Shown here: piece after piece, positions 1-56,213 of the stretch | Numbering within the stretch: position 1 is the stretch's first letter | How the letters are laid out: the number at the start of each line of letters is the position of its first letter | NCBI RefSeq assembly: GCF_053078305.1 | Contig: NZ_CP166879.1 | DNA length: 64,000 bases | Reading direction: 5' to 3' (one strand) | Program-made: the position numbers and the translations under genes | The notes under the pieces: generated by a model | What the model was told of the DNA's origin: nothing | Database searches by the model: none | What the model saw: the letters and a program-made list of their open reading frames with translations, nothing else

Positions 1-126
1 CATTTACGCTAGTTACGCCAATGTGTAATTTGGCCCATTCTCATCGTTATTCGCCCATTTGCCCACATGCACAGTACGGGCTGCACGCTACGCTAATGAC
101 ATCAATACTGTGATGTGGAGCAAATC

Positions 127-903
127 ATGAAAATTACGCAAATTCGTAATGCCACCCAAATTATCCAATACGCTGGCAAAACATTTCTTATCGACCCGTT
201 ACTCGCGCCTAAAGGAAGTTATCCGGGTTTTGCCGGAACGGCACGCGCAGAAATCCGCAATCCAACGGTAGAATTACCGTGCGATTTAACAACGTTACTC
301 AACGTTGACGCCCTAATCGTGACTCATTTACATGAAGATCACTGGGACGAAACAGCCTCCCGCGTCGTCCCTAAAAATAAACTGATTTATGTGCAAAATG
401 AGCAAGATGCTGAATCACTGCATAAACAAGGATTTACACATCTTACCGTACTTACCGATGAGACTAAATTTGGCGATATTACTCTGCATAAAACGACAGG
501 GCAGCACGGCTCCGATCGCACCTATGCAGACCCGGCGATGGCGAAGCGTTTAGGCGCAGCCTGCGGCGTTGTTTTCCAGCACCCGACAGAGAAAACGCTC
601 TATCTGGCTGGCGATACCCTCTGGCGTGACGACGTCGAGGTTACAATGCTAACTTTCCAACCAGAAGTGGTTGTGTTGAATGCCGGATTTGCGCATGTTC
701 TGGGGCATGGCGCGATAATTATGGGAGCAGAAGATATTCTCAAAACACATTTTACCCTGCCAGAAGCGCAAATTGTCGCGACACATATGGAGGCCGTAAA
801 CCACTGTTTGCTGACGCGTGATGCGCTCAAGGAATACGCCAGAGATAATCAAATTATCGAATTTGTGAACGTACCAGAAGATGGTGAAACGTTGACATTC
901 TAA
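127..903 (+). CDS. Metallo-beta-lactamase-fold hydrolase
   Basis: ORF with HLHEDHWDE (HxHxDH) metal-binding motif; GGAG 7 nt upstream of ATG at 127 (track ORF begins at GTG 115). K-12 has mhpR at this position upstream of lacI. Confidence 0.7.
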   Translation: MKITQIRNATQIIQYAGKTFLIDPLLAPKGSYPGFAGTARAEIRNPTVELPCDLTTLLNVDALIVTHLHEDHWDETASRVVPKNKLIYVQNEQDAESLHKQGFTHLTVLTDETKFGDITLHKTTGQHGSDRTYADPAMAKRLGAACGVVFQHPTEKTLYLAGDTLWRDDVEVTMLTFQPEVVVLNAGFAHVLGHGAIIMGAEDILKTHFTLPEAQIVATHMEAVNHCLLTRDALKEYARDNQIIEFVNVPEDGETLTF

Positions 904-922
904 TTCGGAGAAAAAGAGTGTT

Positions 923-1876
923 ATGCGCCCGCTAACTGTTGCCATTATCGCCGTTGCCGGTTTTAGTCCTTTTCACCTTTCCGTACCGTTTATCGTATTT
1001 AGCGAAAAAATGGCGGAGAAAAAACACTTTCACGTAATTATCTGCGCTGAAAAGCCGGGAAACGTGGACTCTGCCGATGGGTTTTCCGTAACCGCCACCC
1101 ATGACTATACCGCAGTCATCCAGGCGGATATTGTGATAATTCCTTACTGGGGAACCATTACACAAAAACCGCCACAAAAACTGCTGGAAGCCTTAACGAC
1201 CGCACGGGATAACGGCGCACAGATTGTCGGGCTTTGCCTGGGCACGTTTGTGCTCGGCTATGCAGGTTTACTGAAAAATAAGCGTGCCGCCACACACTGG
1301 GAGTTCGAGCGTGAATTTCAGGCACGTTTTCCACAAACACATCTGGATATTAACGCGTTGTACGTAGACGATGACGGCATTATTACCTCTGCCGGTACTG
1401 CCGCGGCGCTGGATTGCTGTTTGTATATTGTTCGGCAACATTTTGGCAGCGACTATGCTAACCATATTGCCCGACGGATGGTCGTACCGCCATATCGCAC
1501 CGGCGGTCAGGCGCAGTTTATTGAGCAACCAGTGCCGAAAAATACCCATGATGAACGCATTAATCTCCTGCTGGATTACCTGCGGCAAAACATTGCGCAA
1601 CAGCATGATCTCGACTCGCTGGCGCAGCGAGTAATGATGAGTCGCCGCACATTAACTCGCCATTTTATGAAAGCGACCGGTTCGAGTATCGCCGAATGGC
1701 TTATTACTGAACGCTTACGCCGTAGCCAGGAACTGTTGGGATCCAGTCAATTGCCCGTTGAGCGGATAGCAGCTGAGGTGGGTTTTCTCTCACCTGTGAC
1801 CTGGCGTCAGCATTTTAAATCTCACTTCGGCGTCAGCCCCGCCGAATGGCGCAAAACCTTTCGCGGTATGGCATGA
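923..1876 (+). CDS. GlxA-family transcriptional regulator (DJ-1/PfpI amidotransferase-like domain plus AraC-type HTH)
   Basis: 317 aa ORF; N-terminal DJ-1/PfpI-like region, C-terminal AraC HTH (RRTLTRHF..., PAEWRKTFRG); GGAG RBS upstream of ATG 923. Confidence 0.75.
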   Translation: MRPLTVAIIAVAGFSPFHLSVPFIVFSEKMAEKKHFHVIICAEKPGNVDSADGFSVTATHDYTAVIQADIVIIPYWGTITQKPPQKLLEALTTARDNGAQIVGLCLGTFVLGYAGLLKNKRAATHWEFEREFQARFPQTHLDINALYVDDDGIITSAGTAAALDCCLYIVRQHFGSDYANHIARRMVVPPYRTGGQAQFIEQPVPKNTHDERINLLLDYLRQNIAQQHDLDSLAQRVMMSRRTLTRHFMKATGSSIAEWLITERLRRSQELLGSSQLPVERIAAEVGFLSPVTWRQHFKSHFGVSPAEWRKTFRGMA

Positions 1877-1912: not shown

Positions 1913-2995
1913 GTGAAACCAGTAACGCTATACGATGTCGCAGAGTATGCCGGTGTCTCTTATCAGACCGTTTCCCGCGTGGTGAATCAGGCCAGCCACG
2001 TTTCTGCGAAAACGCGGGAAAAAGTGGAAGCGGCGATGGCGGAGCTGAATTACATTCCCAACCGCGTGGCACAACAACTGGCGGGGAAACAGTCGTTGCT
2101 GATTGGCGTTGCCACCTCCAGTCTGGCCCTGCACGCGCCGTCGCAAATTGTCGCGGCGATTAAATCTCGCGCCGATCAACTGGGTGCCAGCGTGGTGGTG
2201 TCGATGGTAGAACGAAGCGGCGTCGAAGCCTGTAAAGCGGCGGTGCACAATCTTCTCGCGCAACGCGTCAGTGGGCTGATCATTAACTATCCGCTGGATG
2301 ACCAGGATGCCATTGCTGTGGAAGCTGCCTGCGCTAATGTTCCGGCGTTATTTCTTGATGTCTCTGACCAGACTCCCATCAACAGTATTATTTTCTCCCA
2401 TGAAGACGGTACGCGACTGGGCGTGGAGCATCTGGTCGCATTGGGTCACCAGCAAATCGCGCTGTTAGCGGGCCCATTAAGTTCTGTCTCGGCGCGTCTG
2501 CGTCTGGCGGGCTGGCATAAATATCTCACTCGCAATCAAATTCAGCCGATAGCGGAACGGGAGGGCGACTGGAGTGCCATGTCCGGTTTTCAACAAACCA
2601 TGCAAATGCTAAATGAGGGCATCGTTCCCACTGCGATGCTGGTTGCCAACGATCAGATGGCGCTGGGCGCAATGCGCGCCATTACCGAGTCCGGGCTGCG
2701 CGTTGGTGCGGATATCTCGGTAGTGGGATACGACGATACCGAAGACAGCTCGTGTTATATCCCGCCGTTAACCACCATCAAACAGGATTTTCGCCTGCTG
2801 GGGCAAACCAGCGTGGACCGCTTGCTGCAACTCTCTCAGGGCCAGGCGGTGAAGGGCAATCAGCTGTTGCCCGTCTCACTGGTGAAAAGAAACACCACCC
2901 TGGCGCCCAAGACGCAAACCGCTTCTCCCCGCGCGTTGGCCGATTCATTAATGCAGCTGGCACGACAAGTTTCCCGACTGGAAAGCGGGCAGTGA
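1913..2995 (+). CDS. lacI: Lactose operon repressor LacI
   Basis: Protein MKPVTLYDVAEYAGVSYQTVSRVVNQ... ending ...RLESGQ; canonical GTG start at 1913 (track ORF starts 9 nt earlier). Confidence 0.98.
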   Translation: MKPVTLYDVAEYAGVSYQTVSRVVNQASHVSAKTREKVEAAMAELNYIPNRVAQQLAGKQSLLIGVATSSLALHAPSQIVAAIKSRADQLGASVVVSMVERSGVEACKAAVHNLLAQRVSGLIINYPLDDQDAIAVEAACANVPALFLDVSDQTPINSIIFSHEDGTRLGVEHLVALGHQQIALLAGPLSSVSARLRLAGWHKYLTRNQIQPIAEREGDWSAMSGFQQTMQMLNEGIVPTAMLVANDQMALGAMRAITESGLRVGADISVVGYDDTEDSSCYIPPLTTIKQDFRLLGQTSVDRLLQLSQGQAVKGNQLLPVSLVKRNTTLAPKTQTASPRALADSLMQLARQVSRLESGQ

Positions 2996-26334: not shown

Positions 26335-27321
26335 TTAAACCACCCGATCCAGCCCCAACATGCCGCGAGCCTGAATGAAACAAAGCAGCAACGTTCCCCA
26401 TAAGGCCATCGTCAGGTAGGGGCTTATACCGAGAATATTGAAGCCGCTTTCAATAATTTGCAGAAGAAACAGCGCCAACACCATACCAATTATCCGCCCG
26501 CTGCCGCCGTCCGGATTAACCCCGCCGAGTACTGCCGCGAGGATTGACACCAGCAAGTACGATTCGCCATAAGAGGCCTTAGCCGAGTTGAGTTTCGACA
26601 TCATCAAAAATGCCGCTACCGCACAAAGCAAGGCGGAAATGACATAAACCCAAATCAGCACCCGACGAGTGTTAATGCCGGAGTAAAGTGTTGCTCGTTC
26701 GTTAGACCCAATCAGGTAAATGGCTTTACCGAGCGGCGTTTTCTCCAGCAATACCCACAGCCCCAGTGCCACTGCGGCAAACAACCACATCGGTAGCGGA
26801 ATACCGAACCATTGCGCATGATTCAACCACAACACCCATGAGGGATAATTGGCAATGGCGCTACCGCCTGTCACCAGAATATTTATCCCTTTGAGCAACG
26901 TCATCATCCCAAGCGTTGCAAGAATTGGCGACACTCGAATACCAGCAATCAATACGCCGTTACATAAACCGATTATCACCGCCGCGCCAGCGCCCGCCAG
27001 TAACGTAGCGACAACCGTAGCAATACCCGGTGGATACTGAGTCGCCACCCACGCCATCACCAGTGAACAGGCGTTAGCAGTGGCTATAATTGACAAGTTA
27101 ATGCCACCGCAAAGCATGGTCACCGCCATAGCCAACGCCAGAATGCCCAGCACGGGCATTTGCGAAGCGACGGACTGGAAATTACTTATCGACCAGAAAA
27201 TCTCCGGCATAGTAATGCTGAACGCGGCAACAGTTAACACCAGCAGGCCGATCAAGTAAAACTCAACGTTATTACGCCACGATTTTTTCATAGCAGACTC
27301 CGGTTCTGATGCTGACTCCAC
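26335..27321 (-). CDS. Sugar ABC transporter permease (CUT2 family)
   Basis: 328 aa multi-pass membrane protein; overlaps the preceding permease gene; absent at this position in K-12. Confidence 0.85.
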   Translation of the reverse strand: MESASEPESAMKKSWRNNVEFYLIGLLVLTVAAFSITMPEIFWSISNFQSVASQMPVLGILALAMAVTMLCGGINLSIIATANACSLVMAWVATQYPPGIATVVATLLAGAGAAVIIGLCNGVLIAGIRVSPILATLGMMTLLKGINILVTGGSAIANYPSWVLWLNHAQWFGIPLPMWLFAAVALGLWVLLEKTPLGKAIYLIGSNERATLYSGINTRRVLIWVYVISALLCAVAAFLMMSKLNSAKASYGESYLLVSILAAVLGGVNPDGGSGRIIGMVLALFLLQIIESGFNILGISPYLTMALWGTLLLCFIQARGMLGLDRVV

Positions 27322-28259
27322 GCCGTGGCACTAATGCTGGCAACGATGATGATGCCGGTGATCAATGTTTGCCAGTAAGACGAGACTCCCAATAAATTTA
27401 GCCCGTTTTGCATCACTGCCAACAACACCACGCCGAGCAAAGTACCGGTTAACGTGCCGCGCCCGCCGAGCAAACTAGTGCCGCCAAGCACCACCGCAGC
27501 CAGTACTGTCAGCTCATAACCCAGAAGAGAATCGGGGGCGACAGTCATCACCGTCCACGACTGCACTACACCCGCAGCGCCAGACATCAATCCCATATAG
27601 CCATAGACGAAAAGTTGCAGTTTCAGCACGCTAAAGCCGATGCGACTGGCTGATTCGCGGTTCCCGCCAAGGGCATAAATTTTGCGCCCTACACTGGTGA
27701 AATTCATGATAAACGCTGTTAGCAGCACCACCGTAATCATGGCGATCAGCGGCAGACCAAGGCCATAGTCATAGCCATCAGCATCGGTGTACTTGAACAA
27801 CATAACCCCCAGCTCAAACCACGGCGGAAAGTCGTACAGCCACACACCTTTACTCAACCATAACAGCAGGCCATAGAAAATATTCAGCGTCGAGATAGTG
27901 ATGATGATAGAAGGCACCCGTAGGCGATTAACCAGTAAGGCGTTAATTAAGCCAAGTAAAATGCCGATGCAGCCTGCCAGTGCAAACGCGACAGCGAAGT
28001 TGCCACCAATTTTTTGCAGCAACAGCACCATGCCGTATTGCGCAATGATGGTCATTGCTGGAAACGAAATATCAATTCCACCGGAAATCAACACCACAAA
28101 CAAACCACAGGCGAGAATAGTCAACATGGCATAGTTATTGGCGAGATCGTACAAATTACCGAATGTCAGAAACTCGTCGCTGCGCCAGGCAAGGCCAACA
28201 AACAGCACCACAATCAGTAATGCCAGCCAGAATTCATGGCGTTTTTTCAGTTCAGCCAT
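27288..28259 (-). CDS. Sugar ABC transporter permease (CUT2 family)
   Basis: 323 aa multi-pass membrane protein; overlaps the ATPase stop. Confidence 0.85.
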   Translation of the reverse strand: MAELKKRHEFWLALLIVVLFVGLAWRSDEFLTFGNLYDLANNYAMLTILACGLFVVLISGGIDISFPAMTIIAQYGMVLLLQKIGGNFAVAFALAGCIGILLGLINALLVNRLRVPSIIITISTLNIFYGLLLWLSKGVWLYDFPPWFELGVMLFKYTDADGYDYGLGLPLIAMITVVLLTAFIMNFTSVGRKIYALGGNRESASRIGFSVLKLQLFVYGYMGLMSGAAGVVQSWTVMTVAPDSLLGYELTVLAAVVLGGTSLLGGRGTLTGTLLGVVLLAVMQNGLNLLGVSSYWQTLITGIIIVASISATAWSQHQNRSLL

Positions 28260-29736
28260 TTACCACCTCCGCAATCCTGGCCTGAGAACTGCTGTCAGGC
28301 AGGAAGCTATGGGTGATCTGACCTTTTTGCATTACCAAAATCCGGTGGCTTTGATACCACGCTTCTTCAATTTCATCGCAGATCATCAATACCGCAATGC
28401 CATGAGCCGCCAGATCGCTGATAATGCCGTATATTCCTGCTTTGTTGGCGATATCAACACCGACTGTCGGGCTATCGAGAATCAACAGTCGTGGCCCAAT
28501 CGCCAGCCATTTGGCGATCGATACTCGCTGCGCGTTACCACCAGAAAGCGTATTCACCGGGAGATGAGGATCAGAGACTTTGATGGTCAATGCCTTGATT
28601 AGCCTGTCCACCAGGTCACGCACTTTAGCTTCACTCAGAAAGCCGAAGCGATCTTTTACCTTGTGAAAAACAGTGCTAATGATGTTGTCTTCAATAGATT
28701 GCGCCATCACCAAACCGCGCGACATGCGATCTTCCGAAACATAACCAATACCGTGGCGGATGGCGTCCTGGTTACTATGCAGTGTAACCGGCTGGCCGTT
28801 GATGAGGATCTCGCCAGCATCCGGTCGGGTCATACCAAAGAGACTCAGACATAATTCCGTGCGCCCCGCACCAAGCAGGCCAACAATCGATACCACTTCG
28901 CCCGCTTCCACCCGCAAGTTAATATTTAGATATTCCCCATGACGACTTAAATTACGCACCTCCAGCACCGGGGTGCTGGATTTTCCCTGCCACAACTCTC
29001 GCACCTGATATTCAAACTCCTGGCCGGTCATCAGGAAACCGAGTTGTTTTGTGGTCATCTCTGCAGCCGGAAAAGTCCCGACCAGCTCACCATCTTTCAG
29101 CACTGAAATACGGTCGGAAACTTCCATCACTTCTTCCAGACGATGACTGACGAAGACCACGCAGATCCCGCGTTCACGCAATTGATGCACCACCTGTAAT
29201 AACCCTTGCACTTCCTGATGGGTCAGCGAAGCGGTTGGTTCATCCATCACGATCAACCGTGCGTCCTGCGCCAGTGCACGGCAAATAGCCACCAGCTGAC
29301 AGCGGGCAATTGAAAGCTCAGAAACGAGTGTATCCAGTGGCAATGTGACGTTAATACTGGTCATTGCCGCCTGCGCCACCTCACGCAGACGACGGCGGTT
29401 AACAAACAGACCGTGGTGATAGTGATTCACGGCGATATTCTCCCAGACACTCAGGTTAGGAAATAAAGAGAGGTCCTGATAAATCACCTGAATCCCCTGC
29501 GCCACCGAAGCGGCGGGTGTCAGCTTTGACCAGTTTTTCCCACCAAGCGTAATTTCCGCTCCCTCATCCGGGCGATAAACACCGGACATAATTTTAATCA
29601 ACGTCGATTTACCACAGCCGTTTTGCCCGGCAAGGCAGTGCACTTCACCCGACATAAAGTCGAGAGAAACATCGCGCAGCGCTCGCGTGGCATGAAACGT
29701 TTTGTTGATATGACGAAGGGAAAGGAAGGTTTCCAT
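28252..29736 (-). CDS. Sugar ABC transporter ATP-binding protein (two fused NBDs)
   Basis: Walker A GQNGCGKST and a second NBD (GLLGAGRTE); LSGGNAQR signature; start taken at ATG 29736 with AGGGGA upstream (track ORF starts at TTG 29751). Confidence 0.88.
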   Translation of the reverse strand: METFLSLRHINKTFHATRALRDVSLDFMSGEVHCLAGQNGCGKSTLIKIMSGVYRPDEGAEITLGGKNWSKLTPAASVAQGIQVIYQDLSLFPNLSVWENIAVNHYHHGLFVNRRRLREVAQAAMTSINVTLPLDTLVSELSIARCQLVAICRALAQDARLIVMDEPTASLTHQEVQGLLQVVHQLRERGICVVFVSHRLEEVMEVSDRISVLKDGELVGTFPAAEMTTKQLGFLMTGQEFEYQVRELWQGKSSTPVLEVRNLSRHGEYLNINLRVEAGEVVSIVGLLGAGRTELCLSLFGMTRPDAGEILINGQPVTLHSNQDAIRHGIGYVSEDRMSRGLVMAQSIEDNIISTVFHKVKDRFGFLSEAKVRDLVDRLIKALTIKVSDPHLPVNTLSGGNAQRVSIAKWLAIGPRLLILDSPTVGVDIANKAGIYGIISDLAAHGIAVLMICDEIEEAWYQSHRILVMQKGQITHSFLPDSSSQARIAEVVNG

Positions 29737-29784
29737 AACATCCCCTGGCAATAAGAATCGGGGCTTTCGCCCCGAAGAAATGGA

Positions 29785-30771
29785 TTAATAAAGTGAGTCG
29801 ATATTGTCTTTGTTGACCAGTAATACCTTATGGAAACGGATAATTCGCTTATCCATATCTACGTCGGCCTTACCCAGATTCTGCATTTCTAATCCAGGTT
29901 TGATCTCTTCACCCTTCAGCAACGTGCTGGCGACGGCTGCGAGTGCGTAACCTGCAGAGGCCGGATCGTAAGTAATCCCTTCGGTGATATCACCACTTTT
30001 AATCAGTGATGCCGCCTGTGAAGGGATCATCATGCCATAGACTGCGACTTTATTTTTCGCCCGTTTCTCTTTCACCGCACGTCCCGCGCCAATCGGACCG
30101 TTTGAACCAAAGGAGACAACCGCTTTCAAGTCAGGATAGGTTTTCATCAGGTCCAGTGTAGTACGACGTGAGTCATTCACACTCTCGGCAACCGGCATGC
30201 GGCGGGTAACTTCATGCATATCCGGGTAATGCTCTTTCTGGTATTTCACCAGCAAGTCAGCCCATAAGTTATGCTGCGGCACGGTCAAACTACCCACGTA
30301 AATCACATAGCCGCCCTTGCCACCCATGCGTTTCGCCATATGCTCAACATATTCAGCGGCAAATTTTTCGTTATCAATGATTTCGATATCCCAGTTAGCA
30401 CTTGGCTGACCGGGGGATTCGTTGGTCAGAACCACAATTCCGGCATCTCGCGCTTTTTTGAATACCGGTTCCAGCACGTTGGCATCGTTTGGCACGATAG
30501 TAATTGCATTAACCTTACGGGCGATTAAATCCTCAATAATTTTAACTTGTTGCGGAGCATCAGTACTTGAAGGCCCCACCTGTGAGGCATTAACACCAAA
30601 GGCTTTACCCGCCTCAACCACACCTTCGCCCATGCGATTAAACCACGGCATACCATCGACTTTAGAAATATTCACCACGACTTTTTCCGCTGCCTGGAGC
30701 GGCGCAGAAATTAGCGCAGCGCCTAATAACAGCGAAGACACCATATTGATAACAAAACGTTTATTCATCAT
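29785..30771 (-). CDS. Periplasmic sugar-binding protein (RbsB/YtfQ-like)
   Basis: 328 aa with signal peptide MMNKRFVINMVSSLLLGAALISAPLQA; periplasmic binding protein type I fold. Confidence 0.85.
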   Translation of the reverse strand: MMNKRFVINMVSSLLLGAALISAPLQAAEKVVVNISKVDGMPWFNRMGEGVVEAGKAFGVNASQVGPSSTDAPQQVKIIEDLIARKVNAITIVPNDANVLEPVFKKARDAGIVVLTNESPGQPSANWDIEIIDNEKFAAEYVEHMAKRMGGKGGYVIYVGSLTVPQHNLWADLLVKYQKEHYPDMHEVTRRMPVAESVNDSRRTTLDLMKTYPDLKAVVSFGSNGPIGAGRAVKEKRAKNKVAVYGMMIPSQAASLIKSGDITEGITYDPASAGYALAAVASTLLKGEEIKPGLEMQNLGKADVDMDKRIIRFHKVLLVNKDNIDSLY

Positions 30772-31021
30772 TTCAGCCTCATTGCAGGGTAGTCAGGAAG
30801 TGTTCGCCCAAATTAGCGCGCTGGAGAGAATGAGAATTTTCGAATATTTTTATGCAGAATAAACAGCTCTATTTCAGGCAGCTATTAAAAATATGGTTAT
30901 AAATATGGACAAAACGGGCAGCAATAATAAGTGTGACATTCATCACGTAAAAAATAGCAAAATAAACAAAATTAGCGATATTTTATGTTTGTGAGCTTAT
31001 TTCGTGTAGATAAATAGTTAT

Positions 31022-31432
31022 CTACACAACGTCAATAAGGGCATATTCTTCAAAGATAACGTCCATTTCTGGTGAATAGCTTCCTTCTGCCTGGAAAAAA
31101 CGACGGTGTTCATTACGCCAATATTCAAGACTGAGGTCACCTTCACCTTCCTTACGGGCAAGCTCCGCGGTGACATCAGAAAAGCGCAGTAAATGCAGGC
31201 CAATCACTCTGATAACACATACAGGCTCACCACGGCTATTTTCTACAATCTTATACTCACCAATCATCGGAAATGCGTTGTCTTCAATACATCCCGCCAG
31301 CGAACCACAGGAAGCTGTTTTAACACCAGTCGCAATCAACGTTGCGAGGTGATCGGCCAACGCGGCTGAATCGCCAAAAGTACAAAAGGAAGCATGGGGA
31401 TATTTTTGTGAGAATTTTTCTTTTATGGTCAT
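31022..31432 (-). CDS. ASCH-domain (PUA-like) protein
   Basis: MTIKEKFSQKYPHASFCTFGDSAALADHLATLIATGVKTASCGS... resembles ASCH/YqfB-type domains; start uncertain (ATG 31432 or TTG 31462). Confidence 0.6.
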   Translation of the reverse strand: MTIKEKFSQKYPHASFCTFGDSAALADHLATLIATGVKTASCGSLAGCIEDNAFPMIGEYKIVENSRGEPVCVIRVIGLHLLRFSDVTAELARKEGEGDLSLEYWRNEHRRFFQAEGSYSPEMDVIFEEYALIDVV

Positions 31433-31730
31433 GGCAATATTTTTGCGATTACGGAAAAACAAATCACATCTTAATTACTGTTGGTAACCATCAGCAAGAG
31501 TATCATTGGTTTTTCGATACTGAATCTTTTTTATCCGAAGCAGGTCACATTTATGGCCTGATAAATACCTTTGTTAAAACTCACTTTTGTGTATTTCTCT
31601 CAAATAATCCCCTGGAAATTATGCCGGGAGATTATAAAGTTCAGGATCATTCATTAGCAAACCATTCCCGCCCCACTCCCTGGGGCTTAAATCTCTTACT
31701 ATTCACCGTTGCAGGCGTTTCAAATGCGCA

Positions 31731-41876: not shown

Positions 41877-41954
41877 CTTGATTAAATCTTGTGCGCCAGC
41901 TAAATCTGCGAGTCTTCACTCTGACGGATAAAGCTGGCTGCAAGAAAATGACAC

Positions 41955-41986
41955 AGAGAGCCGAATTATCTCCCGTTCGGCTCTCT
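41955..41986 (-). terminator. Stem-loop downstream of the autotransporter gene
   Basis: Perfect 11-bp inverted repeat agagagccgaa / ttcggctctct with 10-nt loop, directly after the ehaA-type stop; flanking runs are only moderately T-rich. Confidence 0.5.
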
Positions 41987-42008
41987 ATCCTTTTACTCAT
42001 TATTCAGA

Positions 42009-45000
42009 TCAGAATTGCCACTTAATGCCAACCATTGCAGAGGTGTCATTATATCCCCTATCGGCAACCTGAACGCCCACATTCCCCCAGACATTCAGGT
42101 TGGCATTTAGCTGTCCTTCCACCCCGGTTTTTATCTCAGCAATATTTCGGGCTCCATCCTGAGTGACGGACACGCCATCCATACTGGTGCTGAAATCCTT
42201 ACTGTTATGCAGCCAGTTCACTTCTACAAACGGCTGGAACTCGCGGGATTTACCGTCATCCATTTTATGGTGGCTCTTCAGCCAGTTTTTTACGCCAAGT
42301 CGGGTTTGAACATTGCCATCACCGTTGCTATGAACGAGGGTTCCGTTGCTTTCGCGGTGCTTATCAGCTTTGACTCCCATCCAGGTAACCTGTGCTTGCG
42401 GCTGAACATACCATTCATTACGCGTTCCCTGGCTGCCATTAAATTCAGCTAATTTGTGTTTGTATCCAGCTTCCAGTGAAGCGGTAAGTCCTTTTGATTT
42501 ATAGGATTCACTTTGTAAGTCATCCCCTTTCACTGTGTTATCAAACCAGCTGTACTGCGCCCAACTGTCGAGATACGCGCCATTACGCGACTCGTCATCG
42601 GCATACCAGGTGGCATAGAGGCCTGTGCTATATCCGTTCACACTCGCTTTTGCACGATAACCGGTTCGCGAGGAAATGGTTTTGCTGTCGCTGTTGCCAT
42701 ATCCCGCCATGACCCCAACATGCCAGCTGTCGCTGCCGTTTTGGCTCCACTGCGCGACATCGCCTCCCAGTTGCAGAACATAGCGATTGCTTTGGGTTTT
42801 CAGCTGGCCGCTGCCATCACGCCATTTATTATGACCACCTTCATGGCGCATCCACATAGTGGTTTGTTTCTGCTCACCCGTCACCATGTCGGTATAGTAC
42901 GTATTACCCAGACGCTCATGCAGACGCGTGGTGAACATGGTATTCGCTGCTGCAAGGTTCGCAATGTAGCTACCCGCCTCCGGTCGCAGGTCATTATCCA
43001 CATTCAGATCCGGACCCGGCGTAGGTGTCGGGTTAGGGTTCGGCTCTGGATTCGGGTTTGGCTCCGGATTCGGCATCGGGTCTGGCTCCGGCTGCAGTTC
43101 AGGAGAATCACTGCCGCTGGTCAGATACCAGTTACCACTATTTGCCCCTTGTCCACGCGCGAGAGTGTAGTCATACGCCCCCGCAACGATACGCCCAGCC
43201 TGAACAAATTCGCCCTCAGACTTACCGTCTACATGGATAAGTTCGATACCGTTAAGGGTTTTCGCACCTGTACCGCCAGCGTTATTCACCGTAACGGCAG
43301 TCGTGCCGCTGGTATCGCCCTCGACAACCAATTTATCGGTTACTGAGTCATCGCCATTCAGTACCGTATTCATTACTAGTTGACCGTTATTACCGTGGTA
43401 GTTCCCCTTCACCACTAACACATTGCCAGCTTGCTGTCCTGACATTCCGGTCATCAGCGTACCGTTGTTGGTCAGATTGCCGCCCAGGGTGTAATTCACA
43501 GACGCAGCCGCTCTTTTTTCAGCGCTATTATTCAACGCCAGGGTACCGTTGTTCTCAACGTTTGCGCTACCCAATCCCTGCGCATGACTTACCAGGACAT
43601 TAGCCGAATTAGCAATGTTCACATTCGCCGTCAGGTTGCTGTTATCGCCCGCGATGTCCAGCGTGCCGCCCTGAATATTCAGCTCTCCGCTCCCCGTTAA
43701 CGAACCGGTTGAAGTGCCCCCGTTGGTAACCGTCAGACTGCCGCCATTTAAGCTCAGCAGTGAATCGGCGCTGCCATTGAGCGTGCCCACGGTCTGGCTG
43801 TGACCATTCATATCCAGTTCAGTCTCTGCCGCCAGACGCAGTTCATGGGTATTACCCAACACGTTATCGTTATTCAACAAAAGCGTCCCACTGCGCAGAT
43901 CGGTAACACCGGTATAGTCGTTGTCTTTGTTAGAAAGCGATACGGTCTGACCCTTCTGGCTGCTGAATGCCAGGTCACCACTGCCGGTAATCTTTGCGCT
44001 GAGATCGGCGGCATTCTCGCTTTTACCGTTAGAGCTCAGCACCAGAGCATCGCTGTCGGTAGCGTGTAAATCAAGCTGGGTCAGGCCGTAACCGATATAC
44101 AGACCGTCATTGTTTACCCCACTCGTCAGACGATAGTCGTAAGTGCCGACGGCCGCTTTTTGCCCATTCTGCTGAATATCACGTTGGGCGCTGCTGGAGA
44201 GGATTTGCCCATTTTTATCCTGCAATTGCAGATTGCCCGCATCGCCCAGAACTTCCGCACCTTGCGCATCAACCAACTTAATGGTGCTGTTACCATCATC
44301 GACTTCAGTGAGCGATAACGCAGAGTCAATATCACGAGATACTGAGCTTACAACGTCACTGTCAGAAACCTGAATCACACCCTCGCCGCGCAAATCCAGC
44401 GTTTTACTAACGTTGACCGTCCCTTCTGTCATCTGTGCACCTGCTGTCAGGGCACCAAAATCAACGGTTCCGCCGGAGAATCCCAAAGTGCTAATAGAAT
44501 GAGCGCCCTTACCCACTGTTACCTGGCTTCCCTGACCCGCAGTGATCCCGCCTCTCTGCAGAAACTCAGCATTCTTTTCCAGGTTAAATGCCGTGTTCTG
44601 GAACGCCAGTGAACCCTGGAACCAGTCTGTATAAGCAAACTCATCGAAGGAGAATTCGTGATTCCCCATGTTTATTTCAACAATGCCTCTACCTTCAAGA
44701 TCGTTATCAAATACCCAATCTTTGTTGGCATTAATTTGCAATTTGCCATCAACATCCAGCTCTGCACGACCGATATTCTTGTCTTCAGAAATAACAGCGA
44801 CAGCACCAGAAGCAACATCAATATATCCGCTGAATGCATAGTTATTGCCGGTCAACTCCACCGTCCCACTGTCGATACTTATTGTACCGTTGCCAGAGAT
44901 CTTATTGGCAAAGGTCATGCTATCGTCAGCCTTCAGGTGTAATTTCCCGCGGTTGGTGATCTCTGCTGTACCTATATTTTGGGTGATCCCTAAAGCGCCA

Positions 45001-45992
45001 TTTTGCTCAATTTTGACTTTACCACTAAAGGCAGAGTTATCCCCGGTTAAGTAAGTCGTGCCATTGAGCGCATTGATATAGCCTAGGCCCTCGCTGCCAC
45101 TGACAATATCCGCGGAAATAGTCGCGTCTTTATCCGTGTGGTTTAAGGTGATTTTCTTATCGGATGTCGAAGCCCACACAAACTCAATTTTTTCGGCATC
45201 AATAATCCCTGCCGCCTTCGCAGCACTTCCTTCCTGTGCACCTAACGCTAACTCAGAGTTGGTGCTTAAACTAATTTTCGGTGCGGATATTTTACCTCCA
45301 TCTGATACGACTAATGTTGTATCAGAACGTTGGTCGTAATAACCCAGGCTAATATGTTCACGAGCATTAACTTCACCACCGTTATTAACCGACAGGAACT
45401 GATTACCGCCATATCCGCCGTAAACGCCCATAAAGAAGGTCCCGGCATTTACCTGACTACCTTCGCCGCTTACATTCCCCTGCGTATAAGTCAGACGACT
45501 GGTGCCCTTAACATGAATTTTGCCGCCGTTGGAGACATTAAAATAGCCTTGATCATGTCTCATGCCTGAGTTTGACTCATACAAATCATCAGCATATAAC
45601 TCGCTGCCAGCATTGGAGACATTCAGGAAGCCCGTACCTTTCAGCAAAAAGTTAAGTGGGCCATTGATTGTTACCTTTCCTCCGGTAATATCCAACCCAC
45701 CACCAGACGCGAGAGTCAGACGCGGACGGGAAGTATCTGTCGCATTGATTACCAGATTGGCATTGTCTGTCACCGTAATACGGTAATCGATGCTCTGGTT
45801 CTCTTTGCCAAAATCAATAGTTTTATCCTGGTTTACGATGACATCATCGGCGAATACCAGAGATGAATATAAACTTATCGCGCTAATTAAAACAGCCCGG
45901 GACTTTTTTCCTTTTACTCTGCTCCCCAGCTCCGAGCAGACGCTCCAACAGTTACGGGACCTGTTCCACTTTAGCCGATATATTTTATTCAT
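42009..45992 (-). CDS. ehaA: AIDA-I-type autotransporter adhesin (EhaA-like)
   Basis: 1327 aa from ATG 45992; extended signal peptide MNKIYRLKWNRSRNCWSVCSELGSRV; Gly/Asn/Thr-rich passenger; proline-rich linker PEPDPMPNPEPNPNPEPNPNPTPTPGP; C-terminal beta-barrel ending ...GIKWQF. No gene lies between pdeL and betT in K-12. Confidence 0.8.
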   Translation of the reverse strand: MNKIYRLKWNRSRNCWSVCSELGSRVKGKKSRAVLISAISLYSSLVFADDVIVNQDKTIDFGKENQSIDYRITVTDNANLVINATDTSRPRLTLASGGGLDITGGKVTINGPLNFLLKGTGFLNVSNAGSELYADDLYESNSGMRHDQGYFNVSNGGKIHVKGTSRLTYTQGNVSGEGSQVNAGTFFMGVYGGYGGNQFLSVNNGGEVNAREHISLGYYDQRSDTTLVVSDGGKISAPKISLSTNSELALGAQEGSAAKAAGIIDAEKIEFVWASTSDKKITLNHTDKDATISADIVSGSEGLGYINALNGTTYLTGDNSAFSGKVKIEQNGALGITQNIGTAEITNRGKLHLKADDSMTFANKISGNGTISIDSGTVELTGNNYAFSGYIDVASGAVAVISEDKNIGRAELDVDGKLQINANKDWVFDNDLEGRGIVEINMGNHEFSFDEFAYTDWFQGSLAFQNTAFNLEKNAEFLQRGGITAGQGSQVTVGKGAHSISTLGFSGGTVDFGALTAGAQMTEGTVNVSKTLDLRGEGVIQVSDSDVVSSVSRDIDSALSLTEVDDGNSTIKLVDAQGAEVLGDAGNLQLQDKNGQILSSSAQRDIQQNGQKAAVGTYDYRLTSGVNNDGLYIGYGLTQLDLHATDSDALVLSSNGKSENAADLSAKITGSGDLAFSSQKGQTVSLSNKDNDYTGVTDLRSGTLLLNNDNVLGNTHELRLAAETELDMNGHSQTVGTLNGSADSLLSLNGGSLTVTNGGTSTGSLTGSGELNIQGGTLDIAGDNSNLTANVNIANSANVLVSHAQGLGSANVENNGTLALNNSAEKRAAASVNYTLGGNLTNNGTLMTGMSGQQAGNVLVVKGNYHGNNGQLVMNTVLNGDDSVTDKLVVEGDTSGTTAVTVNNAGGTGAKTLNGIELIHVDGKSEGEFVQAGRIVAGAYDYTLARGQGANSGNWYLTSGSDSPELQPEPDPMPNPEPNPNPEPNPNPTPTPGPDLNVDNDLRPEAGSYIANLAAANTMFTTRLHERLGNTYYTDMVTGEQKQTTMWMRHEGGHNKWRDGSGQLKTQSNRYVLQLGGDVAQWSQNGSDSWHVGVMAGYGNSDSKTISSRTGYRAKASVNGYSTGLYATWYADDESRNGAYLDSWAQYSWFDNTVKGDDLQSESYKSKGLTASLEAGYKHKLAEFNGSQGTRNEWYVQPQAQVTWMGVKADKHRESNGTLVHSNGDGNVQTRLGVKNWLKSHHKMDDGKSREFQPFVEVNWLHNSKDFSTSMDGVSVTQDGARNIAEIKTGVEGQLNANLNVWGNVGVQVADRGYNDTSAMVGIKWQF

Positions 45993-46523
45993 CACAATCT
46001 CCAGCAATACATCCAAATAAAACCAAGATTGCATAAACAGCAACGCATTAAATGCCATTCCGGTTACTGTTCATCGCATATAAAAATTCAAAAATTTTGC
46101 ATAGCATTGGCAACCACATATCTGAGTATGTAGTTCAGAGGGTAATAAAATAGCAAGTTACTACTGAAAACTTATTTTAAGTTAACACTCTTAACTTTAT
46201 CATTACATTCCCCCCCAGTCTCTAATACCTGCGCATTATATGTATCCGGGAACTCAAATCAACTCAAAATATAAACAAAAGCAGGAGAAATACATTTAAT
46301 ATACAGCCGGTAAAAGTGGTAACTCTTATTAGGTATACAAATATAAGAATCGTCTTATTAATAAATATATAACTCTATAGGACTGAATCCATTCAGCTAA
46401 TACAAAATAAAATCGTTAATTAATAAAATATAAAATCATGAAGTGATACAAGAGGAATTTCAGGATATGACATGACAATCATATATAATATATGCATAAT
46501 TTTTTACAGCGAGTCAATGATTC

Positions 46524-46556
46524 CCGCGCCATATGCAAACATGGCGCGGTTTTATG
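46524..46556 (+). terminator. Rho-independent terminator-like hairpin next to the betT 3' end
   Basis: ccgcgccat-atgcaaac-atggcgcgg (9-bp GC-rich stem) followed by ttttatg. Confidence 0.55.
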
Positions 46557-52503: not shown

Positions 52504-53569
52504 CTCAAGAACCGATCAGATTGAGAGTTACCGTTCCAGGTATGGGGACAGAATCGTTATATAAAACATAGGGGTAACTCTCATGCTTCATAGTGACAAC
52601 CTCGCCAGCAAATTCTAAGCGGACTCGTTCAATCTGGCTGATGAAGGTGCTATGAATGCACTGATAAACCGCAGGTGAAATGCCACTCAGCTTAAGAATT
52701 ACGCCGCTAATGTTCCTTGCTATGGTTACCTGTTCATTCCCGCTCACGGTTAGCATGTACGAAAAGGGTTCTTGTAACGAGTACAAAAATAAGTCAGACC
52801 AAAACCACATGGAGCTTTAAACACGGTTCGTATAATTTATTAGCAGCGATTTATTTTTACTCTTCTTTAATTAATCATCATGCTTAAATATTTTTTAGCA
52901 CAAGATTATCGCTTCGCTAACATTTTATTTTACATTCATCATCAATTGATAATAAAAAATTGTTAATAATTTATTGCAAAAAACAAAAAGTGTTGGAATA
53001 CTCTCCATCAAATGAATACATAATAAACAAATTGAGATATACAAAAAGTAAAAACCATTTAAATGAATATTTTTAATTTATGAGCAGAACCCATTAACAA
53101 TGATTTACTAACCACCAGAAAAGTAAAGAACACCTTGCAATAATATGTATTTATAAATTCATATCATTGATATTAAACCAATCTTACTTTCTACCCTCCA
53201 ACTTTATGCATCAAAAAAAACAAAAGTAAAATCAATTAGATACACAACAAGGCAATCTCACAGGAAATGATGTTAAATATCTCAAAACTAATAAAAAATT
53301 ACTAAAATATTAGACGTAACACACATCCCACACGACCTGTCACTCATAGTTTTAATATTTATTTTTTCACATCATAGTAGATAAAAATACGCATTAAAAA
53401 TGACTTGTAGAAAAGCTGCACAATAAATAGTTCATATTTAGTCTGTTGCGTAGAACTACTATTCAAAAAATCTTATTAATGAGATAATGAGATTACATCG
53501 ATAACGTTCTGATGGCAGGCATACTTATCTGGGTGTGCCTCTCTTTTTTACAACTGTACACGGTGGCGT

Positions 53570-54133
53570 ATGACGAGAAAATATCTCACACAGGATGAAG
53601 TCTACAGGCTGATGGATGCAGCCCAGAGCATGTCCTTTCCTGAAAGAAATCGCTGTCTAATTATGATGGCTTTCATTCACGGTTTTAGGGCCAGTGAACT
53701 TCTTGATTTACGTTTATCCGATATTGATGCATCAGGAAAACAACTTAATATTCGGCGTATTAAAAATGGTTTCTCGACGACACATCCTCTTCTTCCTGAT
53801 GAATATAATTTGATCAAGTTGTGGCTTAAGCAGAGGAAGTTAATTGAAAACGGAGTTGAAGGAGACTGGCTTTTTCTCTCCCGGAAACGCCGCCCTATCA
53901 GCAGACAACATTTTTTTTCTATCATTCGTGAGGCTGGAAAACGTGCAGGATTAGCTGTAAAAGCACATCCTCATATGTTACGTCATGCCTGTGGTTTTGC
54001 TCTGGCTGACAATGGTGTCGATACCCGACTACTCCAGGATTATCTGGGTCATCGAAATATCCAGCATACTGTCAGATACACAGCCAGTAATGCTGCTCGA
54101 TTTAAAGGGGTGTGGAAAAAAAAACCTCGTTAA
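53570..54133 (+). CDS. FimB/FimE-family tyrosine site-specific recombinase
   Basis: 187 aa; strong similarity to remembered FimB/FimE blocks (FIHGFRASE, FSTTHPLL, HPHMLRHACGFALADNGVDTRLLQDYLGHRNIQHTVRYTASNAARF); preceded by ~760 bp of AT-rich ORF-free DNA. Possibly ipuA-like. Confidence 0.88.
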   Translation: MTRKYLTQDEVYRLMDAAQSMSFPERNRCLIMMAFIHGFRASELLDLRLSDIDASGKQLNIRRIKNGFSTTHPLLPDEYNLIKLWLKQRKLIENGVEGDWLFLSRKRRPISRQHFFSIIREAGKRAGLAVKAHPHMLRHACGFALADNGVDTRLLQDYLGHRNIQHTVRYTASNAARFKGVWKKKPR

Positions 54134-54145
54134 AACAGTACCTTC

Positions 54146-54423
54146 TGATTCAAAATGTCAGATTCCTACGTTTTCCTCAATTCTTCCATAAAAAAACAGC
54201 CCATTCAATTAAATAAAACACATAACATGTTGATATTTCTCGCTAAAGTAAAATAACCCCATGATTTGAAATGATTAACCACCAAGGTCATACCAGTGAT
54301 TAACTTTCGCTCATATTGTTAAATAACACAAAATTAAAAACAATAAAAATCAAACAAATTAGATTTATATTCCAAGAAAATTAAATATTCAGGCTATTAA
54401 ACCAAACCTGACATTTTGAATCA
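54146..54423. promoter_or_regulatory. Candidate invertible DNA switch (fimS-like) bounded by 16-bp perfect inverted repeats
   Basis: TGATTCAAAATGTCAG at 54146-54161 and its exact reverse complement CTGACATTTTGAATCA at 54408-54423, flanking 246 bp of AT-rich DNA between the recombinase and the LuxR-type regulator. Confidence 0.65.
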
Positions 54424-54462
54424 AAATGTCAGGTTTTGTAGCAATGGCGTGGACGAGTCTGA

Positions 54463-55257
54463 ATGAAGAAGCCTCTGGTTATTATCAGTGCCTGTCAGTT
54501 CACCAGGCTGGCACTGGAGTCTCTCATCCCAGCGGACAGGTATATCGTGCGGGTGTACAGCAACGTCACTACAGAGGTTGAATTCGTTTTAAAAACCTCC
54601 TGTGGCTACCTGTTGGCTGATATCCCTTCGCTTCCTTCGGGGGAGTTAGTTCTTCTGGCTTGTCTTGTCCGCTTGCGGAGTGATGCCGGGCAATGGCAGG
54701 TCTGCCTGACCGGTGACTCCGACTGGTCCGATAATGCTCCTGCTGCAAGTCTGTATAACGGCTTCCCACATATCGGCACCATGCTGACAGCGAGTCGTTA
54801 TCAGAATCAAATTATCCGCTGGTTACTACGTCCTTTACCCGGCGATATGAGTGATTTCTGGCTCCTGACTGCACGGGAGTTAAGCGTGCTTAAGATTCTG
54901 ATGCAGGGCATGAGTTTCAGTGAGATTGCCCGTTATGAACAACGCAGTTCAAAGACCCTGCATGCGATTGCCACACGGGCTTTAATGAAACTTGGACTGG
55001 GAACACTGAGCGATTTCAGGCTGCTCTATACGGGATGCGGTGACAGCAGAGTGAAACGGAATATACGGCTACATGCAAAATATATCGGACAACATTCCGC
55101 TCATCGACTCACTCAGTATGTGCAGAACATGGTATCCGGAATCCTTTATCCAGAGAAAGTTGCCGTTGGTGAATCAATAAATTCTGACGCCATTTCCGGA
55201 AAAGTACTTTCCGGACAAAGAAAAAATATATCTAAAAAAAGACCAGGATTGTTATGA
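54463..55257 (+). CDS. LuxR-type HTH transcriptional regulator
   Basis: 264 aa; HTH LTARELSVLKILMQGMSFSEIARYEQRSSKTLHAIATRALMKLG; starts 40 bp after the right inverted repeat. Possibly ipuR-like. Confidence 0.8.
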   Translation: MKKPLVIISACQFTRLALESLIPADRYIVRVYSNVTTEVEFVLKTSCGYLLADIPSLPSGELVLLACLVRLRSDAGQWQVCLTGDSDWSDNAPAASLYNGFPHIGTMLTASRYQNQIIRWLLRPLPGDMSDFWLLTARELSVLKILMQGMSFSEIARYEQRSSKTLHAIATRALMKLGLGTLSDFRLLYTGCGDSRVKRNIRLHAKYIGQHSAHRLTQYVQNMVSGILYPEKVAVGESINSDAISGKVLSGQRKNISKKRPGLL

Positions 55258-55410
55258 CACAGCAGCGTTGTTACTACCACCCACTGCGGCGCATACGGAC
55301 TCGCTACAGTGTAGGAGCCAAAATATTTCTACTGTTCTGGGCTGCAGGATTGGGAGGCACGCTGTACAGCCTGTACAGCGTGCTGGCGTACTGACATCTG
55401 TGAGGGAAGG

Positions 55411-56172
55411 ATGCGTTTCGTTCTTTTCTGTCCCTCAGGAATTGTACCAGCGCAGTTCGCAGCTCTATCAACCGGTTCTGTCGGCAATGTTACCTGCATC
55501 AGAACAGAAGAGGAGTTACGCAATAAATTGCGGCACAGGCCACAGAATGTCGTGATATCGGCAGGGCGACCTGCCGAATGCGCTGAAATGTGGTTCCGAT
55601 TTTATCGGGATCACTCATTCGTGGTGGTGTTGTGCGTCGCGCCCTTTTTTCTGCCACCGGATGTGAGTATTTCTGGCGTTCTCAAAAACCTGAGGTTACT
55701 GAAACCAGGAATGTCAGTAGAGCATGTCATCAGTATTGCAAATACCTCTGGTGGGTTTTCAGGGCTGAAACATGCAGAAATTTTGCCAGTTATGGACAGT
55801 TACTCTGTCTTTATGAAAGAGGTGAATAACCGCACAAAGACAATCGTCATGTCAGAACGCTTCCCGGAAAAGCAAAAGAAGGTGTTGTCGTTGCTTCTTG
55901 CCGGACACAGCTGGGAATACAGTGCGCAGTTTCTCAAAACGGGGATAAGACAGATATGGCTTGCCGAGCAGTCGCTAAAAAAGCGTTGGGGAATACCGGA
56001 CAGCATGTCATTGCGGGAAGCCCTGCTGCTGAGCAGCAATAAATTTCACGGTGATGGAAATGCATTGGAAAAAACGAATGCCATGACATTGCGTGAAAAC
56101 GGAAATACCAACAGGTATTCCGTGGTGGTAAATGCAGGGACGCAGGTTTTATCTCTGCATAAATATAAATAA
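55411..56172 (+). CDS. Second, divergent LuxR-like regulator
   Basis: 253 aa; degenerate LuxR-type HTH near the C-terminus (EKQKKVLSLLLAGHSWEYSAQFLKTGIRQIWLAEQSLKKRWGIP); no intact response-regulator phosphoacceptor signature recognised. Confidence 0.6.
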   Translation: MRFVLFCPSGIVPAQFAALSTGSVGNVTCIRTEEELRNKLRHRPQNVVISAGRPAECAEMWFRFYRDHSFVVVLCVAPFFLPPDVSISGVLKNLRLLKPGMSVEHVISIANTSGGFSGLKHAEILPVMDSYSVFMKEVNNRTKTIVMSERFPEKQKKVLSLLLAGHSWEYSAQFLKTGIRQIWLAEQSLKKRWGIPDSMSLREALLLSSNKFHGDGNALEKTNAMTLRENGNTNRYSVVVNAGTQVLSLHKYK

Positions 56173-56213
56173 GTGGGAAATTGAAATTAGTTACCAGAAT
56201 GGAGAATTTCTTC

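Follow-up and report, generated by a model that had tools for sequence, protein, structure and literature searches.

The 64,000-nucleotide stretch of contig NZ_CP166879.1 (RefSeq assembly GCF_053078305.1) analyzed here, which in its entirety is called the window and to which all coordinates refer, carries directly upstream of lacI a 1,830-bp segment (positions 13 to 1842) that is absent from K-12. By its sequence, this segment is the already described O-island 19 (OI-19) of Escherichia coli O157:H7, in which z0443 and then ovrA (z0442) form what appears to be an operon-like two-gene unit; given this identity, the feature itself is already known. It is very probable that the OI-19 segment represents an ancestral state, that this state was lost by at least two deletions, and that the segment encodes a hydrolase of the SaxA family together with its cognate regulator, OvrA.

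Positions 1 to 1903 were compared by megablast with 5,426 complete E. coli genomes, among which a carrier was defined as a genome matching at least 80% of this stretch. Gene families were assigned by Pfam and NCBIfam profile matches, and neighboring genes were read from the RefSeq annotation of near-identical genomes. Two intact open reading frames (ORFs) were confirmed on the plus strand directly upstream of lacI and co-oriented with it: the z0443 ortholog (127 to 903, 777 nt), encoding a 258-amino-acid hydrolase with a metallo-β-lactamase (MBL) fold, and the z0442/ovrA ortholog (923 to 1876), encoding a 317-amino-acid GlxA-type regulator. These were the labels given in a sequence-only reading of this DNA, which also held that neither gene is of the IclR type, and Pfam agreed (Lactamase_B_2 for the hydrolase; DJ-1_PfpI with HTH_18/HTH_AraC for the regulator). 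The lacI gene (1913 to 2995, plus strand) begins 36 nt past the ovrA stop codon and is followed by lacZ, lacY, and lacA. Comparison of approximately positions 1 to 1900 with K-12, in which 76 bp separate the end of mhpR from lacI, and with other E. coli genomes defined the junction: the extra DNA spans 13 to 1842, and the K-12 alignment resumes at 1843.

The whole stretch from 1 to 1903 was found in 435 of the 5,426 genomes (approximately 8%), and the carriers always read mhpR, MBL fold metallo-hydrolase, GlxA family transcriptional regulator, and lacI; a few RefSeq records name the regulator "ovrA: OI-19-encoded virulence regulator OvrA." In enterohemorrhagic E. coli (EHEC) O157:H7 strain EDL933, OI-19 is 1,834 bp long and contains z0442 (ovrA, with an AraC-type helix-turn-helix [HTH]) and z0443, of unknown function (PMC8565820, PMC10877973). 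The segment in the window resembles that island in its position between mhpR and lacI, its two genes, their order, and its size (1,830 versus 1,834 bp). The allele is nevertheless not that of O157:H7, since the segment was 98.6% identical to O157:H7 strain F6667, whereas its best matches (99.8%) were non-O157 strains such as XJ34.

The sequence-only reading had placed the two genes where K-12 has mhpR and had taken the difference for an insertion or a replacement. The structural difference at the mhpR-lacI junction is real (1.83 kb and two genes without a K-12 counterpart), but neither of these explanations for it held. That the two genes replace mhpR, leaving the strain without the IclR-type mhp regulator, could be suspected from the window, which takes in only the final 12 nt of mhpR and thus does not show the gene itself. 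Those 12 nt (1 to 12, plus strand) are, however, the 3′ end of mhpR (CAT TTA CGC TAG, encoding H, L, R, and stop, with TAG at 10 to 12), at which RefSeq mhpR ends in near-identical genomes, and a complete 834-nt mhpR and mhpABCDFE lie to the left in every near-identical genome inspected (98.6 to 99.8% identical over 1 to 1903). With the stop codon of mhpR in the window and mhpR upstream in these genomes, replacement is extremely improbable: the pair sits between mhpR and lacI, and mhpR is expected to be retained in this strain also, judging from its 12-nt end and the near-identical genomes, with nothing replaced. The two genes were not found upstream of lacI in K-12, yet a remnant of ovrA is present there.

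This remnant bears on the direction of the change. The right junction of the K-12-absent segment falls inside ovrA, and the reading frame spans it. The last 34 nt of ovrA (1843 to 1876, plus strand) survive in the K-12 gap between mhpR and lacI, where K-12 retains CGAATGGCGCAAAACCTTTCGCGGTATGGCATGA, comprising the final base of codon 307, then codons 308 to 317 and the stop codon. The residues encoded by this remnant (E308, W309, R310, K311, T312, F313, R314, and G315) are conserved in the family, as seen in 73 homologs, among which R310 and F313 were invariant and W309 was present in 60, and they lie within the Pfam HTH_18 match of OvrA. In CFT073-type (B2) genomes, the last 99 nt of ovrA (1778 to 1876, plus strand) persist beside yaiL as a remnant that RefSeq annotates as a GlxA-family pseudogene without its N terminus and that is joined to the sequence upstream of yaiL. 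Compared with O157:H7, these B2-type genomes lack exactly 10,482 bp, from just past yaiL through mhpT-mhpR and z0443 to ovrA codon 285, and CFT073-type genomes thus lack the entire mhp cluster, which K-12 retains. Among the 5,426 genomes, 435 held the full segment, approximately 487 the 99-nt remnant (922 holding 1778 to 1903 minus the 435), approximately 4,412 a remnant of 34 to 38 nt, and 92 gave no match.

Neither derived state can be obtained from the other by deletion, because K-12 keeps the mhp cluster and B2 genomes keep 65 more nucleotides of ovrA, whereas a single deletion from the full state accounts for either. A 1.83-kb deletion would have left 34 to 38 nt of ovrA in K-12-type genomes, and a 10.5-kb deletion would have left 99 nt in B2-type genomes. 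It is therefore strongly supported by the sequence comparison that the full state is ancestral and that the segment was deleted at least twice, independently. At the ends of the segment an imperfect direct repeat can be read (plus strand; left copy CGCCAATG at 16 to 23, right copy CGCCGAATG at 1840 to 1848), and these 8 to 9 nt might possibly have served as microhomology for the deletion, which is a weak suggestion. The deletion joint was unusually variable in K-12-type genomes. The 10 nt that separate the end of mhpR from the ovrA remnant differed at five positions (TAATGCCGCC versus TGACACCATC; strain VG35A2, locus L004, 2990 to 3080, versus K-12), so that in some K-12-type genomes the bases identical to the island number 38 instead of 34.

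The usual meaning of "O island" is a horizontally acquired element, here one that would have been inserted into a K-12-like mhpR-lacI junction. The segment is indeed absent from K-12, from approximately 92% of complete E. coli genomes, and from the Escherichia species representatives scanned, and diverged copies of the gene pair on IncY and other plasmids indicate that the module can move. Against this, the right junction lies in ovrA, so that preexisting K-12 DNA would have had to supply the conserved C terminus of the regulator, and a second such completion, at a different position, would be needed relative to the B2 genomes. Within the segment, only two ORFs were found, neither related to mobility, and no integrase, transposase, insertion sequence (IS) element, tRNA, or long direct repeat; its GC content (47 to 52%) was unremarkable. 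Its divergence from O157:H7 equals that of the flanks (98.58% identity in the segment, 98.50% in lacZ, and 98.51% in the cyn genes), the plasmid copies (63% and 58% identical) are too diverged to be its source, and the gene order is shared with Citrobacter. Insertion in this strain is thus very unlikely and close to refuted already; the ovrA frame across the right junction, the remnants in K-12 and CFT073, and the Citrobacter order all point to deletion in the K-12-type and B2-type lineages.

In outgroups, the identity of the hydrolase tracked the species tree, at 75 to 81% in Citrobacter, 64 to 67% in Enterobacter, and approximately 61 to 65% in Klebsiella, Kluyvera, Yersinia, and Photorhabdus. 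Citrobacter rodentium has the order hydrolase, regulator, lacI, lacZ, and lacY, with 33 nt from the end of the regulator gene to lacI; a single methyltransferase gene separates the regulator from lacI in most other Citrobacter species. One Citrobacter genome carries mhpR-mhpA-mhpB to the left of the pair, a few genes away, and prpE after lacY. Amino acid identities of Citrobacter proteins to those of the window were similar across the block (75 to 81, 72 to 80, 78 to 83, and 79 to 81% for the four proteins compared), which argues for a single history of the block, and the order common to Citrobacter and the carriers argues that the full state is ancestral.

The deletions also end close to the lacI promoter, which, as defined in the classical lacI/lacIq literature, would lie at 1849 to 1877 on the plus strand (−35 hexamer GCGCAA at 1849 to 1854, a 17-nt spacer, and −10 hexamer CATGAT at 1872 to 1877). 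Positions 1849 to 1877 were identical to the K-12 sequence. So placed, the promoter is embedded in the 3′-terminal part of ovrA, whose TGA stop (1874 to 1876) forms part of the −10 hexamer. Upstream of the −35 hexamer, 6 nt remain before the end of the K-12-type deletion and 71 nt before that of the B2-type deletion; both would spare the lacI promoter, consistent with selection. A terminator scan found no terminator-like structure in the 36-nt gap between ovrA and lacI, and read-through into lacI is therefore possible; that it occurs from ovrA in island-bearing strains is a speculation from the sequence. Within lacI itself, the LacI sequence near the C terminus (2890 to 2925, codons approximately 327 to 333) is KRNTTLAPKTQ and differs from that of K-12, which is presumably KRKTTLAPNTQ, and one internal residue also differs. 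The core of the lac O1 operator, AATTGTGAGCGGATAACAATT, was unchanged.

The longest ORF form of the hydrolase gene begins with GTG at 115 (115 to 903), and the true start is almost certainly the ATG at 127, as judged from GGAG at 117 to 120, an invariant ATG in 15 aligned upstream regions from six genera, an N terminus that aligns with PDB entry 6BRM from residue 1, and the 777 nt annotated by RefSeq in near-identical genomes. The protein differs from that of O157:H7 by 4 amino acids. Over its full length (residues 1 to 258 versus 1 to 259; E value, 2.7e-87), it was 54% identical to 6BRM, the isothiocyanate hydrolase SaxA, and it was 47% identical to the related entry 3RPC. The HxHxDH motif and residues H67, H69, D71, H72, H127, D163, and H220 were invariant in 19 sequences, including the two PDB entries. 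SaxA converts R-N=C=S to an amine and carbonyl sulfide; its family is widespread in Enterobacterales, with all five clades having kept the activity (PMC7036374). The full-length identity to 6BRM and the invariant metal-ligand motifs make it likely that z0443 is a SaxA-family zinc hydrolase that would turn isothiocyanates into amine and carbonyl sulfide. The likeness to the SaxA proteins of Pectobacterium and Pseudomonas extends to the MBL fold, the length (258 versus 259 amino acids), and the His/Asp ligands; the setting differs, the E. coli gene being chromosomal and beside the lac operon rather than in a plant pathogen virulence locus.

A specific, testable function for z0443 is new here, as the EHEC reviews carry "unknown function" and the literature that mentions z0443 ascribes no function to it. 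We found no link of z0443 or OvrA to isothiocyanates in the literature, and a 2025 review of isothiocyanates against EHEC names neither OvrA nor a hydrolase. The word "isothiocyanate" in EHEC papers (1 or 2 occurrences per paper) is probably mostly incidental and due to staining with fluorescein isothiocyanate (FITC). Expression of z0443 depends on RpoS and drops 10-fold in an rpoS mutant (PMC2907692), and a scan for consensus sigma-70 sites found nothing promoter-like on the plus strand upstream of the gene. A CTACGCT at 88 to 94 resembles a sigma-S −10 element and, as a speculation, would fit that reported dependence.

The pair might instead be a conserved enzyme-regulator module with another physiological substrate in E. 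coli and Citrobacter, the SaxA-like activity being secondary and OvrA responding to that other molecule or to none. The generic NCBIfam and Pfam names would allow this, and the RpoS dependence of z0443 (PMC2907692) fits a general stress gene. We consider such a substrate rather unlikely in view of the 54% full-length identity to a crystallized isothiocyanate hydrolase, with catalytic motifs invariant. Cattle and humans, which host these strains, also take in plentiful isothiocyanates with their food. Activity has, moreover, been reported for all five enterobacterial clades (PMC7036374).

The second gene product, OvrA, has a DJ-1_PfpI domain at residues 6 to 171 and HTH_18/HTH_AraC at residues 233 to 311 (Pfam) and thus shows the GlxA-type architecture, a DJ-1/PfpI-like N-terminal domain with a C-terminal double AraC HTH, which it shares with the GlxA/FtrA/GbdR group. 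It differs from the O157:H7 F6667 protein by 1 amino acid (13 synonymous codon changes and 1 nonsynonymous) and is identical to the XJ34 and TR01 proteins. The top NCBIfam model was FtrA (PRK09393; 324.6 bits over the full length), with GbdR second. The score is below the equivalog cutoff of FtrA (425 bits) and far below that of GbdR (480), which argues that OvrA is a member of the family and not an FtrA or GbdR ortholog.

The closest solved structures for the OvrA N-terminal domain were isocyanide hydratases (InhA; E value, approximately 3e-13) of the DJ-1/PfpI superfamily; in the alignment, OvrA Cys105, within the motif G-L-C-L-G, falls on their catalytic cysteine. Cys105 was invariant in all 73 saxA-linked regulators. 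Unlike InhA, OvrA is a DNA-binding regulator and not known as an enzyme; it might sense an electrophile through Cys105, which is speculative. As relayed in PMC8565820 and PMC10877973 from Liu et al. (2020), in LEE-positive strains OvrA binds the LEE1 promoter of the locus of enterocyte effacement (LEE) at GACATTTAATGATAATG, activates ler, and promotes adherence. The 64-kb window contains no LEE.

Alignment across genera revealed a conserved element of approximately 40 nt upstream of the hydrolase gene (29 to 67, plus strand), a candidate operator for an OvrA-type regulator. It contains two direct repeats 20 nt apart, TTGGCCCATT (30 to 39) and TTCGCCCATT (50 to 59), followed by TTGCCCACA; its core is GGCCCATTCTCATC at 32 to 45, with the pattern GGCC-N3-T-N2-CATC. 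Columns of the element were invariant across E. coli, Citrobacter, Enterobacter, Klebsiella, and Kluyvera. In 34 of the 91 loci, the core lay in the 250 nt that precede the saxA start, mostly at approximately 90 to 100 nt and once at 204 nt. Elsewhere, it had 5 other matches in 1.05 Mb, and its match in the window was the only one there. It is plausible from these patterns that OvrA is the cognate regulator of the operon and that it would act on the conserved GGCCC-N-CATC repeat element approximately 95 nt upstream of z0443. The published 17-nt OvrA site GACATTTAATGATAATG, searched with up to 3 mismatches, had two matches in the window (3495, in lacZ, and 23243), not convincingly above chance.

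Linkage of the two genes across genera points to the same pairing. In 58 of 91 loci, an OvrA-like gene lay directly downstream of the saxA homolog and co-oriented with it, the flanks being otherwise unrelated, so that the pair stays adjacent while its surroundings change, as a cognate enzyme-regulator module should. Among these loci are IncY plasmids of E. coli and one Providencia plasmid. Plasmid records with a match numbered 409, of which 128 were from E. coli, and in the top-ranked E. coli plasmids the hydrolase copy was approximately 63% identical to that of the window. On IncY plasmid pTET-GZEC065 (locus L012, 4001 to 5782), the hydrolase gene is followed by an OvrA-like regulator (58% identical) and then an ester cyclase gene; on the Providencia plasmid (locus L013), an OvrA-like regulator (57% identical) follows the hydrolase. 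The hydrolase and OvrA also match PHROG families of unknown function (27315 and 11275). Carriage by phages, considered on account of these matches, was set aside after the phage collection gave only distant matches (30 to 46% identical) from Gram-positive or uncultured sources.

In Pseudomonas and Stutzerimonas, a regulator 44 to 46% identical to OvrA over its full length and of the same architecture lies divergently upstream of saxA, whereas in Enterobacterales it is co-oriented and downstream. At one locus (L085), an isochorismatase-family gene follows saxA. The Pseudomonas layout (regulator, saxA, and isochorismatase gene) is presumably that published as saxC-saxA-saxB. The SaxC protein of P. 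syringae, described by Fan et al. in 2011, is reportedly of the AraC/GlxA type; elsewhere it is called only "a transcriptional regulator," and a 2025 SaxA preprint makes no statement on saxC. The E. coli pair resembles the Pseudomonas sax locus (saxC, saxA, and saxB) in having a saxA homolog beside a regulator with DJ-1/PfpI and AraC HTH domains and differs from it in having no adjoining saxB-like or sax efflux genes.

Several observations weigh against reading the segment as an ancestral, twice-deleted module of a SaxA-family hydrolase and its regulator. Within Escherichia, the full state is seen only in a minority of E. coli, since the hydrolase gene was missing from every Escherichia species representative of the GTDB-based collection; the state counts, moreover, record presence in genomes. 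The repeat that might have served as microhomology is short, and its two copies match imperfectly. The isothiocyanate hydrolase activity of z0443 is argued solely from 54% identity. In EHEC, deleting z0443 left virulence phenotypes unchanged (PMC8565820), an experiment that does not address detoxification. Finally, the conserved element is unlike the published AT-rich LEE1 site GACATTTAATGATAATG, of which no good copy was found near the operon.

A broader proposal goes beyond the assignment of a SaxA-family hydrolase and its regulator. OI-19 might be an ancestral module for detoxification and sensing of isothiocyanates, homologous to the saxA/saxC pair of plant pathogens, and not a "virulence island." OvrA would then sense dietary isothiocyanates from crucifers that cattle and humans eat, perhaps via the invariant Cys105 of its DJ-1/PfpI-like domain, induce the hydrolase through the GGCCC...CATC operator, wire this signal into ler and the LEE in LEE-positive strains, and couple it to lac repression by read-through. 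We put this forward tentatively, as a possibility that is not the probable one.

The window differs from K-12 at three further places. At 26407 to 31669, 5.3 kb absent from K-12 lies in the yahK-yahJ gap and encodes a sugar ATP-binding cassette (ABC) transporter with a binding protein of the "autoinducer 2" type and an ASCH-domain protein. An ATPase ORF there (28252 to 29751, 499 amino acids) is intact, whereas in O157:H7 strain M1300706002 it is a pseudogene with an internal stop. The pdeL (yahA)-betT gap holds 4.6 kb absent from K-12 (41880 to 46525) with a 1,349-amino-acid ORF on the minus strand (42009 to 46058), annotated as the autotransporter adhesin EhaA in the best-match genomes. Between betA and ykgH, 6 kb absent from K-12 (52593 to 58584) contains several ORFs, including one of 776 amino acids (56181 to 58511) that is probably hyxB, since "hyxB outer membrane autotransporter" is among the features under the best matches for 39 to 64 kb. 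The regions at 10 to 34 kb and 39 to 64 kb were 98.1 to 98.4% identical to their best matches among the 5,426 genomes, compared with 99.8% for the OI-19 segment; this lower identity outside the segment suggests an undersampled source lineage and a mosaic history of the region.

OI-19 entered the catalogue with the O157:H7 genome comparison, and there is earlier work on OvrA. The structure itself is ordinary, and what is added here is modest: the argument on polarity, an account of where the K-12 lacI promoter region came from, and a function for z0443 that can be put to the test. The label "O island" implies acquisition by O157:H7, whereas the sequence points to independent loss in K-12 and B2 strains, and the lacI promoter region of K-12 would consist of the last codons of a deleted regulator gene. 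The native role of OvrA is likely that of a regulator of z0443, for which a candidate operator is now at hand. If OvrA does respond to isothiocyanates, a dietary compound that has been studied as an anti-EHEC agent would be linked to regulation of the LEE.

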